A stretch of 14,932 bases of DNA, taken from positions 1-14,932 of IMG/VR virus record IMGVR_UViG_2660238190_000004. The stretch is one strand, 5' to 3'. This DNA is from a virus (taxonomy: Duplodnaviria; Heunggongvirae; Uroviricota; Caudoviricetes). The notes beneath the pieces are model-generated. The model did not search any database, was not told the DNA's origin, and saw only the letters and a program-made list of their open reading frames with translations. The stretch's first letter is position 1. Every line of letters starts with the position of its first letter. The translations under genes were made by a program, and so were the position numbers. This document shows positions 1 through 14,725 of the stretch, piece after piece.

Positions 1-282
1 TCAATAAATCCCATCATTGCGATCAACCTCATCCTTAACCATTGATGCGAGCAGTTCTTCCAGTTTCTGCGCTGACAGCTTTACCTGGTGATCTTCAGCA
101 TCTTCCCGGGCTATTGTGGTTCGCGCAGTGGCTGATTTTGCTGACATCACCACAGGGGGCAGACGGACCATTGAACCATGGCCTCCGGAACAAATAAGGG
201 CAAAAATAACAACCACTATCGAAAGCTTACAAACTAACCGCAGCACGTTCCTGCATACGACGTGTCTGCGGCATAATCCCAA
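1..282 (-). CDS. hypothetical small protein (uncertain; may start at an internal Met)
   Basis: Complete ORF ending with TGA at 1-3. An internal ATG ([13 protein letters not shown]...) has GGAGG about 10 nt upstream. Hydrophobic N-terminal stretch. No family recognised; its 5' end overlaps the tfa fragment. Confidence 0.2.
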
Positions 283-554
283 TGATTACTCCCTGACAGG
301 ATTTGCAGGCCACTCAATATCGGTGCAGTTGATGTATCAACACGATTCAACAATACCCGATATTTATTCCATGCCTCCAGCAACGATCTTTCTTCCTCCG
401 TTGCGATTTCCAGATCTACAGCATCCTGCAGTGGCGCAATATACTCACTGAATTCCTGGATGTAGAACTGTGTGGTGACGGTCTTCCAGCCATTCGTCTC
501 CTGCTGTATCGAAGCATACCAGGCTATTTCAATATCGCTATGCTGCGGCAGCAT
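234..554 (-). pseudogene. tail fibre assembly protein (Tfa) C-terminal fragment, frameshifted
   Basis: Translation contains [40 protein letters not shown], matching the C-terminal segment of the intact Tfa at 1334-1918. Relative to the intact copy a 1-nt difference ('ccgatattgag' vs 'cctgatattgag') shifts frame so the end reads [11 protein letters not shown]... instead of [11 protein letters not shown]. The N-terminal part is unrelated to Tfa. Confidence 0.6.
236..450. repeat. direct repeat copy 1 (about 215 bp, derived from the tfa 3' end plus downstream hairpin)
   Basis: Aligns by eye with 1285-1499 at high identity with scattered mismatches, from 'aaccgcagcacgtt...' through '...cagtggcgcaatatactcactg'. 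Confidence 0.8.
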
Positions 555-610
555 TTAACCCCTTGTAATTCATCGCCATAATTGATTTAATTCACAAATA
601 AAACTATAAC

Positions 611-1279
611 ATGGTGAAATCAATGAAAAAAAACACAGATGATGGGGCTAAAATTTACACACCACTTACCCTAAAGCTTTATGACTGGTGGGTTTTGGGA
701 GTATCAAATCGGCTTGCATGGGGATGTCCTACAAAGGAACACCTTCTTCCACACTATCTGGAACATGTAGGTAACAACCATCTGGATATTGGTGTTGGAA
801 CTGGGTTTTACCTTACTCACGTACCTGAGAGTAGTCTGATATCTTTAATGGATTTGAACGAAGCTAGCCTGAACGCGGCATCTACAAGGGCTGGGGAATC
901 AAAAATTAAACATAAAATTAGCCATGATGTTTTTGAACCTTATCCCGCGGCGTTACATGGTCAATTTGATTCCATTTCCATGTTTTACCTTCTTCACTGC
1001 CTGCCTGGAAATATATCTACAAAAAGCTGTGTAATACGCAATGCGGCGCAGGCCTTAACTGACGATGGAACTCTATACGGAGCCACAATTCTTGGCGATG
1101 GAGTTGTGCACAATAGCTTCGGTCAAAAACTGATGCGCATTTACAATCAGAAAGGCATCTTTTCAAACACAAAAGATTCCGAAGAAGGCTTAACACATAT
1201 ACTCTCAGAGCATTTCGAGAATGTTAAAACCAAGGTTCAAGGTACTGTAGTAATGTTTTCCGCTTCAGGGAAAAAATAG
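611..1279 (+). CDS. class I SAM-dependent methyltransferase (small-molecule or protein MTase type)
   Basis: 222-aa ORF with ATG start. Motif I LDIGVGTGFY (GxGxG SAM-binding loop), an acidic residue at the end of beta-2 (LMDLNE) and a motif II-like FDSISMFYLLHCLP. Visibly AT-rich compared with the flanking tfa sequence. Sits between two direct repeats. Resembles, from memory, the DLP12 ybcY position in E. coli K-12. Confidence 0.7.
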   Translation: MVKSMKKNTDDGAKIYTPLTLKLYDWWVLGVSNRLAWGCPTKEHLLPHYLEHVGNNHLDIGVGTGFYLTHVPESSLISLMDLNEASLNAASTRAGESKIKHKISHDVFEPYPAALHGQFDSISMFYLLHCLPGNISTKSCVIRNAAQALTDDGTLYGATILGDGVVHNSFGQKLMRIYNQKGIFSNTKDSEEGLTHILSEHFENVKTKVQGTVVMFSASGKK

Positions 1280-1284
1280 CATCC

Positions 1285-1499
1285 AACCGCAGCACGTTCT
1301 TGCTTAAGACGTGCTGCGGCATAATCCCAATGATTACTCCCTGACAGGGTTCGTAGGCCACTCAATATCAGGTGCAGTTGATGTATCAACACGGTTCAGC
1401 AACACCCGATACTTTTTCCAGGCTTCCAGCAATGAGGTTTCTTCCTCCGTTGCAATTTCCAGATCTGCAGCATCCTGAAGCGGCGCAATATGCTCACTG
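1285..1499. repeat. direct repeat copy 2 (overlaps the 3' end of the intact tfa)
   Basis: Second copy of the about 215-bp repeat; contains the tfa stop codon region and the downstream hairpin. Confidence 0.8.
1287..1319. terminator. stem-loop between convergent MTase (+) and tfa (-); putative bidirectional terminator
   Basis: Perfect inverted repeat 'ccgcagcacgt' / 'acgtgctgcgg' with an 11-nt spacer, located 8 nt after the MTase stop and 15 nt after the tfa stop. An A6 run at 1271-1276 gives a T-run on the minus strand about 10 nt beyond the stem, so it is not a textbook terminator. Confidence 0.35.
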
Positions 1500-1918
1500 G
1501 CTACCTGCATCAGGTTGTTTTTTGTTTCTTCCGCCTCCCGGATCCGGAACATTTTTTCTGCTTCCGTATCCTTCACCCAGGCTGTGCCGTTCCACTTCTG
1601 AAACTCCCCTTCCGGCGATAACCAGGTAACATTTTCCGGTAACGGACCGAGTTCAGAAATAAATAACTCGTCCCCTGACGCTACGTCATAAACCGTTTTA
1701 CCCCGATGGTCTTCAACGAGATGCCACGATGCCTCATCACTGTTGAAAACAGCCACAAAGCCAGCAGGAATATCTGGTGGTGCAATATCGGTACTGTTTG
1801 CTGGCAGACCTGTATGAGGCGGAATATATGCGTCACCTTCACCAATAAATTCATTAGTTCCGGCCAGCAGATTATAAATTTTTATGGTCCGTGCTTGTTC
1901 ACTCATTCTGAATGCCAT
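1334..1918 (-). CDS. tfa: tail fibre assembly protein Tfa
   Basis: 194 aa, [54 protein letters not shown]...[47 protein letters not shown]. Matches recalled lambdoid/e14-type Tfa proteins nearly end to end. Its ATG overlaps the stop of the upstream stf fragment (TAATG). Confidence 0.9.
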
Positions 1919-2304
1919 TATGCAAGCCTCACAATATAGTTAAATGCGATGTTTTTGACGGTGTTTTCCGCGTTACCAGCAGCGTTAACGGTGATGGTGT
2001 GTCCATGTGAACCAATCGCAACGGAGTGCGTATGCGCACCAATACCTACAGTATGTGCATGTGCGCCAGAACTTGCTGCAGTACCAGACAGCGAGTGGGT
2101 ATGAGCACCTGCTGACTGTGTCTGAATACGTTGATAATACGATCTACGGGAAGAAGTCCCCGGGCTTACTTGATACTGTGAATCCTGGACATAAGTGAAC
2201 CCACCGCCATCATAAAATGCTAACGCAGAACCGCCGCCTCCTGGCCAACGAATACCATTACCATGAGTATGATCACCGGCAGACCCCGTATTTACGCTGT
2301 AATG
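1918..2304 (-). pseudogene. stf: side tail fibre protein (Stf) C-terminal fragment, no start codon
   Basis: Hand translation of the minus strand gives ...[18 protein letters not shown]... and ends ...[26 protein letters not shown] with His-x-His repeat motifs typical of lambdoid side tail fibre C-termini. The frame opens just after an in-frame stop at 2305-2307, contains no Met, and abuts the Nu1 fragment. Confidence 0.75.
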
Positions 2305-2707
2305 TCAACGGCACACGCACAAGTATCCCCGAAATCTCCTGTGCCACACGTTGCAGAATGAAGGTAAACAGTTCAGTTTCCAGCACCACTCCGTCTTCAC
2401 GGGCATTTTTCAGTTCCTGCGCATCTGCCTGCGCTTTTGTGAGCCGGTAGCGTTCATAGTCAATGGTGCCGGGTTGTAAATCTGACTCCGCTGCCGCACG
2501 CAAATCGGCCAGTTCTTTGCGGAGCTTTTCGTTTTCGATATCAGTTTCCCTCTGCGCATACCACTGAATTGCCATGGCAGTATCAAATACAGATTCAATG
2601 CCCTTACTGCCTTTGGAGACGCAAGGGAGCCCCTGAGACTGCCAGCGTTCAATCGTCCGCGGGTCCACGTTAAAAATTTCGGCAAGCCTCTTTTTATTAA
2701 CCTTCAT
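2273..2707 (-). pseudogene. nu1: terminase small subunit Nu1, C-terminally truncated
   Basis: [105 protein letters not shown]... parallels lambda Nu1 (MEVNKKQLADIF...). Similarity stops about 5 codons before the stop (…[11 protein letters not shown]), and the protein is about 35 residues shorter than lambda Nu1. The track ORF begins at a TTG 8 codons upstream; the ATG at 2705-2707 aligns with the lambda start. Confidence 0.8.
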
Positions 2708-2839
2708 AGAACAACCCATTATCAAATACAAGGCCCGACATGAAAACGCCAGAAAAAGGCATTTTCGGACACTTTCATGTCGGACATTTATGAATGCAAT
2801 ATTAAAAAAAACAAAAAGTTATATTCGAGAAGTACCGAC

Positions 2840-2935
2840 ACGATTTTCCCTGAAAAATTTTCATAAATAGTGAAAAACCGCGAGGTCGCCGCCCCGTAAC
2901 GATCTGGATCACCGGAAAGGACCCGCCAACGACTT
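2840..2935 (-). other. cos site (cosB - cosN - cosQ) of the prophage
   Basis: Minus strand reads GGGGCGGCGACCTCGCGGTTTTTCACTATTTATGAAAATTTTTCAGGG, nearly identical to the lambda left end GGGCGGCGACCTCGCGGGTTTTCGCTATTTATGAAAATTTTCCGG. The 12-nt cohesive-end sequence is at 2883-2894. The other side (ccgtaacgatctggatcaccggaaaggaccc) matches the lambda right end/cosQ region. It lies immediately upstream of Nu1, as in lambda. Confidence 0.8.
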
Positions 2936-3117
2936 TCGCGTGCAGGCATTAAAAATTTTGCAGTTCCATGCCTAGTTGAAACCTCGATTTCTATAACATC
3001 CAATTTTGTAAATTTAGATATAGCTCAACTTTTCCCAATGTTTTCAAGTGTATAAAAACAATTGGCGTTACGCCATAACACTATACTTAGGATAAGTAAA
3101 GATTTTAAGGAGTTTTA

Positions 3118-4185
3118 ATGAGTCAACATCAATATTATCCACAGCTGAAATGGAAGCCTGCTGAATATGAATCTCTGATGCTTTTAGATCAAACTACGCT
3201 CTCTGGTTTTACTCCGATCATTACCATTCCAGACATAGACTGGGATTATGAAAACGAATGCTACAAGAAGAGTTTGAGTTCTTACTTATCTGACTTCGGT
3301 ATTAACCTTGCGGCATCCTGGAAAGCCAATCGTCCTGTTTTGCTGGATGTTAAATATTTAGATAAACATGGTTCGAGCCGCCATCATCCTCTAGATATGT
3401 GTATCCAAGATGCTAGAGTAAATGGTAAGGAAATTATCCCTGTTGTTTCTCCCGCATATTCAACAAACTATATACATGCTGTTCAACGCAACTTAATCAA
3501 TGGGCTCGCTATATCTATCACCCCCCAGACATGGCACCAATTCACAAGTCTGGTTAACCACTTAAATATTCATCCTAGTTTAATTGATGTAATCATTGAT
3601 TTTGGAGATATTCAAAACGCAACTGATAGTTTAAAACAACAAGCATTAAGCATGGTCAACACATTATCAGGCCAAGCTCCGTGGAGAAACTTGATTTTAT
3701 CTTCAACCGCATACCCGGCATCACAGGCAGGGATACCGCAACATCAAGTTCATCATATTCCGCGCCATGAATACGATCTTTGGATGTACGTAGTACAGAA
3801 TTTTAGCAATGGAAGAACGCCAAGTTTTAGTGATTATCCCACCGCTAGCTCTACCATTACGAGCGTAGACCCACGCTTCATGTCTCAGTATGTCTCAGTG
3901 AGATATTCGAACGATACCTCATGGATCTTTGTAAAAGGTACCGCAGTTAAAGGAAATGGATGGGGCCAAACTAAAAACTTATGTACTACCCTTGTTAGTT
4001 CGCCAGAGTATCAAGTCTTTGGCTCCAAATTTAGTTGGGGGGATGATTACATTTACCAAAGATCATTAGGCGCTAACAAATCTGGCGGCTCTAAAGAATG
4101 GCGTAAAGTTGCACATACGCACCATATTACGTTAGTCGTGAGACAGCTTTATTGGTTGGCGCAGACTCAGCCTGCCAAGCCTTAA
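3118..4185 (+). CDS. Beta-family-like protein (phage P4 Beta / sce7725-like), function unknown
   Basis: 355-aa ORF with ATG start and SD 'taaggag' 5 nt upstream. N-terminal YYPQLKWKPAEYESL...FTPIITIPD resembles the Y-x-P-x-L-K-x-K-x-G/A-E signature I recall for the Beta protein family. Markedly AT-rich. The family assignment is from memory and unverified. Confidence 0.65.
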   Translation: MSQHQYYPQLKWKPAEYESLMLLDQTTLSGFTPIITIPDIDWDYENECYKKSLSSYLSDFGINLAASWKANRPVLLDVKYLDKHGSSRHHPLDMCIQDARVNGKEIIPVVSPAYSTNYIHAVQRNLINGLAISITPQTWHQFTSLVNHLNIHPSLIDVIIDFGDIQNATDSLKQQALSMVNTLSGQAPWRNLILSSTAYPASQAGIPQHQVHHIPRHEYDLWMYVVQNFSNGRTPSFSDYPTASSTITSVDPRFMSQYVSVRYSNDTSWIFVKGTAVKGNGWGQTKNLCTTLVSSPEYQVFGSKFSWGDDYIYQRSLGANKSGGSKEWRKVAHTHHITLVVRQLYWLAQTQPAKP

Positions 4186-4747
4186 CTTTCCAGCCTACGC
4201 GTTTCTTTAAGGCTGTTCTGACTTCAGGCCTGAGATTCGCTATTGGAATATTTTCCGCAATAATATTCCATAACTCAAATCGGGGCTTGCTTTTGATTCC
4301 TTTGGAATAGCCCCATCGTTCAAGTACGTCGATACATTCATCTTTCCAAAGCAATTGAGCGAGCATCAATGTGTCATGGTTTCGATTAAGCTTTTCTCCA
4401 CGCATGTGCTTTATAAGAATGGCGCCTTTTGGCCCAACAGAAACCGTTTTAACGCCCCACCAACCTGGGATTAACTTTAATGCTCCCTCAAGGTGTTTCT
4501 CAGCTACGACAAGAGTAACCTTGTCCATTACAGAAGAATAATGCTTGATTTGAAGAGGCAAACGCTCCAAAGAGTCATATTCACTTTTGAGCTCGTACCC
4601 GTGTATAACACCATTTATTACAGCAATGTCTGCTCTACTGGCGCCAAGGGATATGGAAAATTCATCGACCACAAGGCAGTCTGGATCTAAATGCGATTCT
4701 TTCAAAAGCTTATGATGCACCGCGAACCTAACATCTTGATCTTTCAT
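4127..4747 (-). CDS. predicted PD-(D/E)xK-fold nuclease-like protein
   Basis: 206-aa ORF with ATG start and a strong SD (ggagggagtaaggag) upstream. Motif VVDEF...RADIAVINGVIHGYELKS gives E ... D-(hydrophobic strand)-ExK spacing typical of restriction-endonuclease-like folds. Convergent with the Beta-like gene and overlaps it by 59 nt at the 3' ends. Confidence 0.6.
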   Translation of the reverse strand: MKDQDVRFAVHHKLLKESHLDPDCLVVDEFSISLGASRADIAVINGVIHGYELKSEYDSLERLPLQIKHYSSVMDKVTLVVAEKHLEGALKLIPGWWGVKTVSVGPKGAILIKHMRGEKLNRNHDTLMLAQLLWKDECIDVLERWGYSKGIKSKPRFELWNIIAENIPIANLRPEVRTALKKRVGWKVKAWQAESAPTNKAVSRLT

Positions 4748-4768
4748 GACTTCTCCTTACTCCCTCCG

Positions 4769-4804
4769 TTATTGAATTATAGCGCACTGCATTTTACTGC
4801 ATTT
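4769..4804 (-). promoter_or_regulatory. putative promoter of the nuclease-like gene, with tandem direct repeats
   Basis: Consensus -10 TATAAT on the minus strand (plus coordinates 4776-4781), about 29 nt upstream of the ATG at 4747. Two tandem copies of 'actgcattt' (plus strand, 4786-4804) occupy the spacer/-35 region, where no good -35 hexamer is present. Confidence 0.35.
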
Positions 4805-5096
4805 GAGAGATTTGACCACTTCAATCACAAAATGCTTATCTGCAGCAACAAGATTCATAGCCATACGACTATGGTGATTACCTTTTGTCTGGAAAACTGA
4901 CCATTCCACGAAGATCAGATAGGTCTATAGAATCTTGGTTTGTCATAGCGTTCGTCTTACTTTGAGATGAACCTTTGCTGCATAGGAGATCAGCCCGTCA
5001 AGGCTCACCAGCACTAACTGACTACTCAAAGGCTCATTCCAAAGGGTTTGGTTCGACGTGGTTGAGTGCGCTGCGGTGCGCGGTGAAATACCTGTA

Positions 5097-5126
5097 CAAA
5101 AATGCCCCGCATCTGCGAGGCATTTT
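5097..5126. terminator. intrinsic terminator downstream of Rz/Rz1 (bidirectional hairpin)
   Basis: Plus strand 'aaaaaatgccccgcatctgcgaggcatttt': GC-rich imperfect stem flanked by an A-run on one side and a T-run on the other, giving a U-tract after the stem on either strand. Lies about 40 nt past the Rz stop. Confidence 0.5.
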
Positions 5127-5163
5127 CCTGAAAGTCACGTATTAAATTTCAGTGAAATTAAAA

Positions 5164-5622
5164 TTATTTTAAGCACTGCGTCCTGATGTACTCCTGCAGG
5201 TAGTTGACCTGAGCGGTTATCTTGTCGATTCCACTTCGGAGACGGTAATAATTGAGTTCAGCATCTGCTGTAAGTCTTGGGCTTTCTCCATCGCCCATGC
5301 TGCTGGCTCCGGTCGTTGACTTTGCACAGGTGGCGGCGACTTGCAGGCGCTTACGCCCAGCAGAAACATCAGCACGAAGACTTTCGATAGTCGCGTTAGC
5401 ATCAGCAAGCTCCTTTGTGTATCTGGCGTCGAGTTCTGCTACATCACGCTGACGCATCTGCATGTCAGTAATTACCACGTTCGCCAGCTTCAGTTCTCTG
5501 GCATTTTTGTCGCGCTGGGCTTTGTAGGTAATGGCGTTATCGCGGTAATGATTAACAGCCCATGACAGGCAGACGATGGTGCAGATAACCAGAGTATAAA
5601 TAATCGCTGCGACTCTGCTCAC
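5164..5622 (-). CDS. Rz: i-spanin Rz
   Basis: ...[76 protein letters not shown]... is nearly collinear with lambda Rz. Probable GTG start at 5620-5622 overlapping the endolysin stop (GTGA); the track ORF starts at a TTG 5 codons upstream. Confidence 0.9.
5217..5408 (-). CDS. Rz1: o-spanin Rz1 (lipoprotein) embedded in Rz in an alternate frame
   Basis: 63-aa ORF nested inside Rz. Signal sequence with lipobox-like LLGVSAC followed by a proline-rich segment ([16 protein letters not shown]), as in lambda Rz1. The exact start is uncertain. Confidence 0.8.
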
Positions 5623-6152
5623 TGATCTATCCCCCAACAGGCTAATGCGCTTTCCTGGTCACGACGAATAACCTGTCCATAGCAGTTATTTGAACGTATG
5701 CGGCAATCGCGCCCACCATCTTTTATCCACCAGCGAATCGCCTCGCATGCGCCCTTACGATCACCGGCATTCAGCCGCTTATAAAACGTCGACGGGAAAC
5801 ACTTACCGGGGCCAATGTTATAGGGACAGAATGACGCTATACCCGCTTTCTGTGGTTCGGTCAGTGGTACTTTAATATTGCGCTCCACCCATGCCAGCGC
5901 CTTATCACGTTCAATAGCGTTAACCTGGTCGCATTTTTCCTTCGACAGCTTCATTCCCGGTATGACGGGCTTACCATCCACCATTGTGGCACCACGACAG
6001 ATGGTCCATATACCGGAACCATCGCGGTATGCCGTAGTGTGGTTACCCTCTTTTTCATCCAGAAACTGGTCAAGTATTTGAGGAGCAGACGCGCCTGCAG
6101 CAATCAGCGCCAGAACAGCAGCTGACAGGCCGTATTTGATTTTTGCGCTCAT
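5619..6152 (-). CDS. endolysin, T4-type lysozyme (GH24) with N-terminal SAR/signal-anchor domain
   Basis: 177 aa. N-terminal weakly hydrophobic Gly/Ala-rich segment ([18 protein letters not shown]) followed by E-x8-D-x5-T catalytic spacing ([20 protein letters not shown]), paralleling the phage 21 R21 SAR endolysin. Confidence 0.9.
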
Positions 6153-6207
6153 GGATATTTATCAGGATGCTACCAATGAAAGATACTGGAAAGCCAACTG
6201 CAAAAAG

Positions 6208-6522
6208 CTAACAACCCGTAATCGAGTTATCAGAACTGTTAATTTTTATGGTATACCGCGCCTCTGAACAGGGGCGCGTTTCTGGCAACAGCTCGTCCCC
6301 TTCACATAACCCGGCAGCAACATCCATGAAGACCTGTCTGATGCTCCTTCTGGCTGCTGCCTCATAAAACTCCAGCGCGGCACCTTCAACACGGTCCAGC
6401 GAGATGTCCAGGTCAAAAATTTCACCGTCAAAGCGTTTTTTGTCCCGTAACGCTAAAGTTACCGTAACTTTATTCTCAAAATTGCGGATCCCTTTCACAA
6501 TCAGTTCATAGTTTTGAGTCAT
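6208..6522 (-). CDS. DUF1327-like protein (YdfR-like) between holin and endolysin
   Basis: 104-aa ORF with ATG start and SD (GGGGAGAG). The position between holin and endolysin is the same as ydfR in the Qin prophage, as I recall. The family call is from position and size, not a checked alignment. Confidence 0.55.
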   Translation of the reverse strand: MTQNYELIVKGIRNFENKVTVTLALRDKKRFDGEIFDLDISLDRVEGAALEFYEAAARRSIRQVFMDVAAGLCEGDELLPETRPCSEARYTIKINSSDNSITGC

Positions 6523-14380: not shown

Positions 14381-14659
14381 TTACCTCCAGATACGTTGCT
14401 GGAATGTGCGGGACGGACGCGGTGGCCGTTCGGAGTAAGGGAGCCTGACGGAGATTATCCAGTGACGGTAGTCGAGGCTAAGGGCTTTTTTAACCTCGCA
14501 TCCGCGCCTGCGGTAACACTGAATGAGCCAATCGGCCTGTTCTTCAGTGCATGGGGGATGCTGGTACCAGTCTGACTTAAATGCATGAGAATACCGCTCG
14601 TGCGTGTGGGCAAGAACGGTCGAATTATCATGATTGTAATATTTTGCGTTGCGTGCCAT
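14381..14659 (-). CDS. hypothetical nin-region protein
   Basis: 92-aa ORF with ATG start and SD GGAGAAAA; translationally coupled to the downstream DUF968 gene. No family recognised. Confidence 0.5.
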   Translation of the reverse strand: MARNAKYYNHDNSTVLAHTHERYSHAFKSDWYQHPPCTEEQADWLIQCYRRRGCEVKKALSLDYRHWIISVRLPYSERPPRPSRTFQQRIWR

Positions 14660-14725
14660 CGGTTTTCTCCGGTGGCACGGTGTTACTCAGCGGGAGTTCA
14701 GCCCCGCGCAAGATTGTAGATGAGT

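Follow-up and report, generated by a model that had tools for sequence, protein, structure and literature searches.

A complete phage 21-type cos site retained by an ompW lambdoid prophage after a recent 22,431-bp deletion

Can a lambdoid prophage that has lost its large terminase and morphogenesis genes and has kept its cos site still be packaged in trans by another phage, in the manner of a satellite, and carry a candidate defence pair along with it? This question is raised by the window (the whole stretch of 14,932 nucleotides analysed here), in which a cos site lies between a truncated small terminase gene and a pair of genes related to beta and cII of phage P4. The explanation that we consider very probable is that this is the complete phage 21-type cos of an ompW lambdoid prophage, that a single recent deletion of 22,431 bp left the site untouched, and that a 21-type terminase may still act on it and the neighbouring cargo may still be exchanged by recombination.

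A genuine cos site is present on the minus strand, where it extends in full over approximately 2729-2924 of the window (Table 1). On that strand, the joined ends of lambda can be aligned to window 2700-2935, and the phage 21 genome has its first base at window 2894. The cohesive-end sequence GGGCGGCGACCT was found exactly where a sequence-only reading of this DNA had put cosN (2883-2894), and the core GTTACGGGGCGGCGACCTCGCGG has a single occurrence in the window and none in 200 shuffles, even with three mismatches allowed. The cosQ heptamer is common to lambda, phage 21, DLP12 and Qin, as is its spacing to cosN, which is 31 nt here as in lambda. Judged by its sequence, this appears to be a lambda-like cos, with cohesive ends and nicking core, cosQ at the fixed distance and an ordered cosB at the fixed distance between cosN and R3. 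The interval 2840-2935, earlier given as the site, takes in cosQ, cosN, I2 and part of R3 and so covers one portion of the full cos. The 221-bp cos is 100% identical to that of intact sibling prophages, and thus carries no disabling change relative to these presumably functional phages. A 71-aa open reading frame on the minus strand (2788-3003), running across cosQ, cosN and R3, was considered and rejected as probably no gene, having no family match and being unannotated in RefSeq relatives.

Table 1. Positions of the cos subsites, neighbouring genes and deletion junction in the window
Feature	Position	Strand	Remarks
cosQ, packaging-termination subsite, GGGTCCT	2918-2924	-	mapped from the OL657228 cosQ annotation
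Conserved nicking core, 23 nt, GTTACGGGGCGGCGACCTCGCGG	2878-2900	-	same in lambda and phage 21
cosN cohesive-end sequence, 12 nt, GGGCGGCGACCT	2883-2894	-	12/12 vs lambda and vs phage 21
I2, IHF-type site in the cosN-cosB interval	2851-2865	-	mapped from the M81255 annotation
cosB, phage 21 type, order R3-I1-R2-R1	2729-2845	-	collinear with the annotated phage 21 cosB
R3	2830-2845	-	16/16 vs phage 21
I1	2809-2821	-	13/13 vs phage 21
R2	2773-2788	-	15/16 vs phage 21
R1	2729-2745	-	17/17 vs phage 21
Small terminase gene (phage 21 gene 1, Nu1 homologue), truncated	2273-2707	-	ATG at 2707
Deletion junction	2289/2290	.	22,431 bp missing vs intact siblings; 2-bp microhomology TA
Side tail fibre gene, 3' remnant, last 123 codons	1918-2289	-	corresponds to strain 700481 locus CDS 7362-10469
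Tail fibre assembly gene, intact	1334-1918	-	annotated in sibling; PF02413 Caudo_TAP
Beta-family protein gene, cargo in the lysis-to-cos slot, cosQ side	3118-4185	+	PF14350 Beta_protein, E=8e-56
sce7726 / P4 cII-like protein gene	4127-4747	-	NF033832 sce7726_fam, 2e-54; PADLOC cll, 3.8e-31; PF26915 Phage_P4_cII

Subsites were compared with the depositors' phage 21 cos annotation (OL657228, M81255 and X02501), phage 21 being the relative returned by a search of deposited phages (97-98% identity). Across cos positions 1-186, 183/186 bases are shared with phage 21 and there are no indels. Positions 13-49, which include I2, agree with phage 21 at 37/37 bases and with lambda at 30/37, and the cosB elements whose phage 21 matches are listed in Table 1 match lambda at 11/16 (R3), 11/13 (I1), 6/16 (R2) and 5/17 (R1) positions. 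The single R2 base that differs from phage 21 is also present in the intact siblings. Taken on its own, the interval 2840-2935 has 85/96 bases in common with phage 21 and 75/96 with lambda. These two phages discriminate between each other's DNA more than 1000-fold despite having the same cosQ and cosN, the basis of the discrimination being the recognition helix of TerS and the R sites of cosB (PMC4669245). At this locus, the R sites and the DNA-binding domain of TerS are those of phage 21, and neither the R sites nor the TerS recognition domain is that of lambda. The earlier description of cosN, cosB and cosQ as near-lambda is therefore right for cosN and cosQ, which equal lambda, and wrong for cosB; such a look is what any phage 21-type cos should give. 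Going by these subsites, the packaging specificity of the site is of the phage 21 type, and lambda-specific terminases should be expected to ignore it for initiation.

The truncation of the adjacent Nu1 homologue, already noticed from the sequence alone, was confirmed. The gene product (PF07471 Phage_Nu1, E=1e-71) is 144 aa in length and comprises native residues 1-140 followed by the four foreign residues GVCR, as against 182 aa in intact copies. The 140 retained residues are identical to phage 21 gp1 at 138 positions and to lambda Nu1 at 81 (58%). It has lost the TerL-binding region, which is made up of the final 42 residues; lambda TerS depends on its C-terminal 30-40 residues to bind TerL, and does so poorly without the last 30 (PMC9026076). 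The large terminase gene is also absent, removed by the deletion. With the TerS tail and the large terminase both gone, the prophage would be unable to package itself, and its cos would thus be usable only by a terminase acting in trans and having phage 21 specificity.

The prophage is lambdoid and is integrated at ompW, beside the trp operon. Window 2289-14932 matches intact prophages in 36/5426 complete E. coli genomes at 99-100% identity. Window 1-2290 has its match (99.8-100%) elsewhere in the same genomes, at the far prophage end 22.4 kb away. In strain 700481 the two pieces have the same orientation, and the intervening 22.4 kb carry the remainder of gene 1, the genes for large terminase, portal, head and tail, and the larger part of the side tail fibre gene. 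The missing DNA begins at codon 140 of the small terminase gene and ends inside the side tail fibre gene, and exact comparison across the junction gave no mismatch to its left and 2 to its right. The window has no gene for a large terminase, head or tail shaft after the truncated gene, which upholds most of the earlier statement that head and tail genes are lacking; a tail fibre remnant and an intact assembly gene do remain (Table 1). The sibling prophages carry int, xis and an early region, and the head genes of the parent are lambda-like.

Several further observations concern the prophage and its relatives. The two halves of the window lie approximately 290 kb apart and in opposite orientation in strain Ecol_AZ155 (NZ_CP019005.1), which points to a large inversion of the chromosome, one breakpoint of which fell in the prophage's tail region. 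Internal stops are annotated in the tail tip J and tape measure genes of strain 700481, the closest complete relative (11201-14680 and 17469-20042), and reflect either true gene decay or errors of sequencing; in Ecol_AZ155, the portion of the tape measure gene that was retrieved has no pseudogene flag. At the extreme prophage end of the window, a class I SAM-dependent methyltransferase gene (611-1279) sits amid remnants of tail fibre assembly genes and a DinI fragment, in what appears to be a second cargo slot. Two tRNA genes (10293-10454) lie in the late region downstream of a DNA methyltransferase gene and are called by ARAGORN as Arg(tcg) and Met(cat); in RefSeq the second is a tRNA-Ile, as would be expected if its CAT anticodon is modified and reads AUA. 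Finally, a stretch of approximately 220 bp (4943-5163) that separates the cII-like gene from the Rz-type lysis gene matches the 3' ends of rha in P22/BTP1-like phages at 87%, and looks like a gene remnant marking an older recombination joint.

The age of the deletion can be judged from its distribution. The exact 144-aa fusion protein occurs on 4-7 contigs, with 0 mismatches to the window across the junction, while at least 1000 contigs encode the exact intact 182-aa protein. Four NCBI accessions, on four contigs, represent the truncated sequence in the protein collection, and the junction is the same in at least 5 independent contigs. A junction-spanning sequence was found in none of 5426 complete E. 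coli genomes. The deletion is genuine, rare and very recent, in a common prophage. Retention of the cos is accounted for by a breakpoint approximately 600 bp off and by the recency of the event, not by selection. Absence of structural genes is not a conserved property of a lineage here, and the strains concerned do not form a lineage adapted to life without such genes.

On the cosQ side of the site lies the cargo pair, two convergent genes that overlap by 59 bp at their 3' ends (Table 1). In PADLOC, the beta protein matches PD-Lambda-2_C (4e-32) ahead of the P4 beta model (3.5e-10), and no match to a gop partner was obtained among all small open reading frames in 2788-5145, so that the locus holds homologues of beta and cII only, not all three genes of the P4 gop-beta-cII system. 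Copies of the cassette at least 99% identical to it were found in 126/5426 complete E. coli genomes; deposited phage genomes had none. Two otherwise identical prophages (NZ_CM192136.1 and NZ_CP115370.1) have an IS2 insertion in this region between cos and the lysis genes (window 2936-5163). In the intact siblings the beta/cII pair is ordinary phage cargo.

According to the explanation that we favour, one illegitimate-recombination event at the 2-bp microhomology would have removed the 22,431 bp. A terminase of 21 specificity, supplied by a superinfecting or co-resident phage, would then bind cosB and nick cosN, and translocation would start towards the truncated terminase gene and the trp operon; without a terminating cos inside head capacity, the outcome would be stalled, non-infectious heads. 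A prophage cos of matching specificity is used in situ, and Feiss et al. described how initiation at a lone prophage cos fills the head with adjacent bacterial DNA until the motor stalls, leaving a tailless, non-infectious particle. Matches covering most of a 21-type cos were found in 601/5426 complete genomes; the site is thus fairly common in the species, which makes superinfecting 21-type phages plausible.

Cutting at cos would, in addition, stimulate homologous recombination, by which the neighbouring beta/cII pair could move into the infecting phage. The best-documented consequence of a retained cos is most likely this recombinational one. De Paepe et al. found that a marker in DLP12 ybcV, in the slot between the lysis genes and cos, was gained by lambda approximately 100-fold more often than markers in Qin or Rac, and that 10/19 junctions of DLP12 marker uptake were adjacent to cos, as expected if cutting there stimulates exchange (PMC3945230). 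The beta/cII pair sits in the same slot, bordered by conserved lysis genes and, at its other end, by cos and gene 1, and by analogy a 21-type phage infecting the deletion strains could pick it up by cos-stimulated recombination. The situation is an ordinary and already documented one, and very probably not a new satellite-like element.

A different proposal, which spells out the sequence-only reading, is that the remnant is satellite-like, i.e. that it excises, replicates and is packaged cos-to-cos in the virions of a co-resident lambdoid helper, carrying the beta/cII pair. In principle this is sound: the cos is intact, helper packaging of a passive prophage via its cos works in the laboratory and is a standard assay (PMC4669245), int, xis and the early region are found in sibling prophages, and cos-bearing PICI satellites of lambda-like phages are known in E. 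coli. Size, however, is against it. The intact prophage unit measures 50,108 bp, as taken from the constant offset of the ompW 3' repeat, and if the deletion strains are otherwise unchanged relative to the siblings (the early region lies outside the window), the remnant would be 27,677 bp and its dimer 55,354 bp. The head capacity of lambda is approximately 38-52 kb, smaller cos replicons being packaged only as multimers that sum to that range (PMC9764419), and both sibling-based sizes would fall outside; a lambda genome 10% over length already has greatly reduced infectivity (PMC13595911). Nor was a gene for capsid-size change or packaging redirection seen in the window, where the sole candidate for a dedicated hijacking function is the truncated TerS, a plain truncation.

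Packaging direction likewise disfavours the satellite proposal. Terminase stays on the cosB end and translocates from there (PMC9026076), and from this cosN it would proceed via cosB and the small terminase gene towards decreasing coordinates, through ompW' and into yciE-trp. The beta/cII pair (3118-4747), being on the cosQ side, would thus be packaged only by a run that began at an upstream cos and ended here, and in the closest complete genome no second cosN (one mismatch allowed) lies within approximately 57 kb downstream, the deletion being allowed for, or approximately 56 kb upstream. The pair had been thought mobilisable through its cos; packaging from the site runs away from it, and its mobility is instead that of phage cargo in the intact siblings.

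The helper envisaged was simply lambdoid, while the helper needed would be one of phage 21 specificity; lambda-type helpers would not initiate at cosB-21. A second prophage with the same cos was looked for, but each of the 29 complete genomes with an identical cos has a single 21-type cos. A more permissive search of these genomes returned 1-3 Nu1-like regions in total, the others being below approximately 85% identity. In the deletion strains, short-read contigs are continuous from 2005 through the junction and cos to 3475-5507, and this assembly behaviour argues against a second near-identical copy of cos and gene 1. Together with the rarity and recency of the deletion, these points of size, direction, partner cos and helper make satellite-like packaging unlikely, possible in principle as it is, and we give the proposal as a whole little credence.

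Somewhat less probable still is that the truncated small terminase and the cos together form a decoy or dominant-negative module against packaging by 21-type phages, comparable to Rpp. The 144-aa product is encoded immediately after cos and agrees with Rpp in size and domain arrangement (139-154 aa, with a wHTH and an oligomerisation domain); lambda TerS no longer binds TerL once its C-terminal 30-40 residues are lost (PMC9026076), and an infecting phage should give a lower yield where a prophage offers a cos of its own specificity. An intact cos-21 with a 144-aa TerS that keeps its DNA-binding and oligomerisation domains might, at long odds, poison or redirect a 21-type terminase as an accidental Rpp-like module. 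Against this, the event is single, rare and recent and bears no sign of selection, the gene, as part of the late operon, would need induction of this prophage to be expressed, and no sequence feature goes beyond plain truncation. We regard the likeness of the truncated gp1 to Rpp as coincidental and a function of this kind as very doubtful; if it were true, the locus would be a natural snapshot of the first step from a defective prophage to a packaging-interfering satellite. That the junction is instead an artefact of assembly or window construction and the prophage truly intact, as its absence from 5426 complete genomes might suggest, is next to impossible, being refuted by independent exact copies of the fusion protein and the junction in two NCBI assemblies (GCA_038410835.1 and GCA_039852895.1), where the contigs measure 258 kb and 137 kb, and in three or more separate Logan run assemblies, each of them matching the window exactly.

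The favoured explanation, a fresh deletion beside an untouched cos, changes the account of this locus in three respects. The site has phage 21 specificity and could be acted on by phages of the 21 type alone; the prophage derives by a fresh deletion from one that is widespread in intact form; and the beta/cII pair is already mobile in intact relatives, the cargo of the remnant being likelier to move by cos-stimulated recombination than by satellite-like packaging. The value of this beyond correct annotation is slight, although the locus offers a clean and datable example of how cryptic prophages of the DLP12/Qin type originate.

Compared with known systems, the closest likeness of the site is to the cos and gene 1 of phage 21, with which it has the order and spacing of subsites in common and the same cosQ, cosN, I2, R3, I1 and R1. 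It differs from phage 21 by three substitutions in positions 1-186, by a 1-nt difference ahead of the start codon and at 6/22 positions of the sequence between cosQ and cosN; past cosQ, the cargo region of the window is unrelated, and gene 1 is cut off after codon 140. With lambda the likeness extends to cosN (12/12), cosQ and the spacing between them, but not to the R sites of cosB or to TerS (58%). The cargo resembles the P4 gop-beta-cII triad, which guards against lambda and P1 (PMC9122126), in having homologues of beta (PF14350) and cII (PADLOC cll, PF26915) side by side; unlike the triad, it is without gop, its genes are convergent and its beta protein is nearer to PD-Lambda-2_C, and it is a candidate defence pair judged by its genes alone.

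The cos-bearing PICIs of E. coli resemble the window in that a gene for a winged-helix protein of approximately 140-150 aa comes after a lambda-like cosQ and cosN; they carry no structural genes and use helper capsids. They are, however, conserved lineages without a phage-type cosB, in which Rpp redirects the TerS of the helper, whereas the window has an ordinary phage 21 cosB and a plain TerS truncation in a one-off deletion mutant with a predicted length of approximately 27.7 kb. The element is very probably not a PICI-like satellite.

It is instead a defective lambdoid prophage that has retained cos, of the kind known from DLP12 (nohD) and Qin (nohA) in E. coli K-12, which show the same order of lysis genes, cargo slot, intact cos, Nu1 homologue and a deletion reaching to remnants of tail fibre and assembly genes. 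DLP12 and Qin were rejected as carriers of a 21-type cos, the cosB of both being lambda-type, and are analogues in layout only. Both are old and much more decayed prophages, whereas the window has a 21-type cosB, a Nu1 homologue shortened by 42 residues and a recent deletion with 0 mismatches to intact relatives. In Qin, nohA (locus 5799-6368) is itself a fusion whose last 13 residues differ from Nu1 and which overlaps stfQ, which indicates that Qin arose by the same kind of deletion from terminase to tail fibre.
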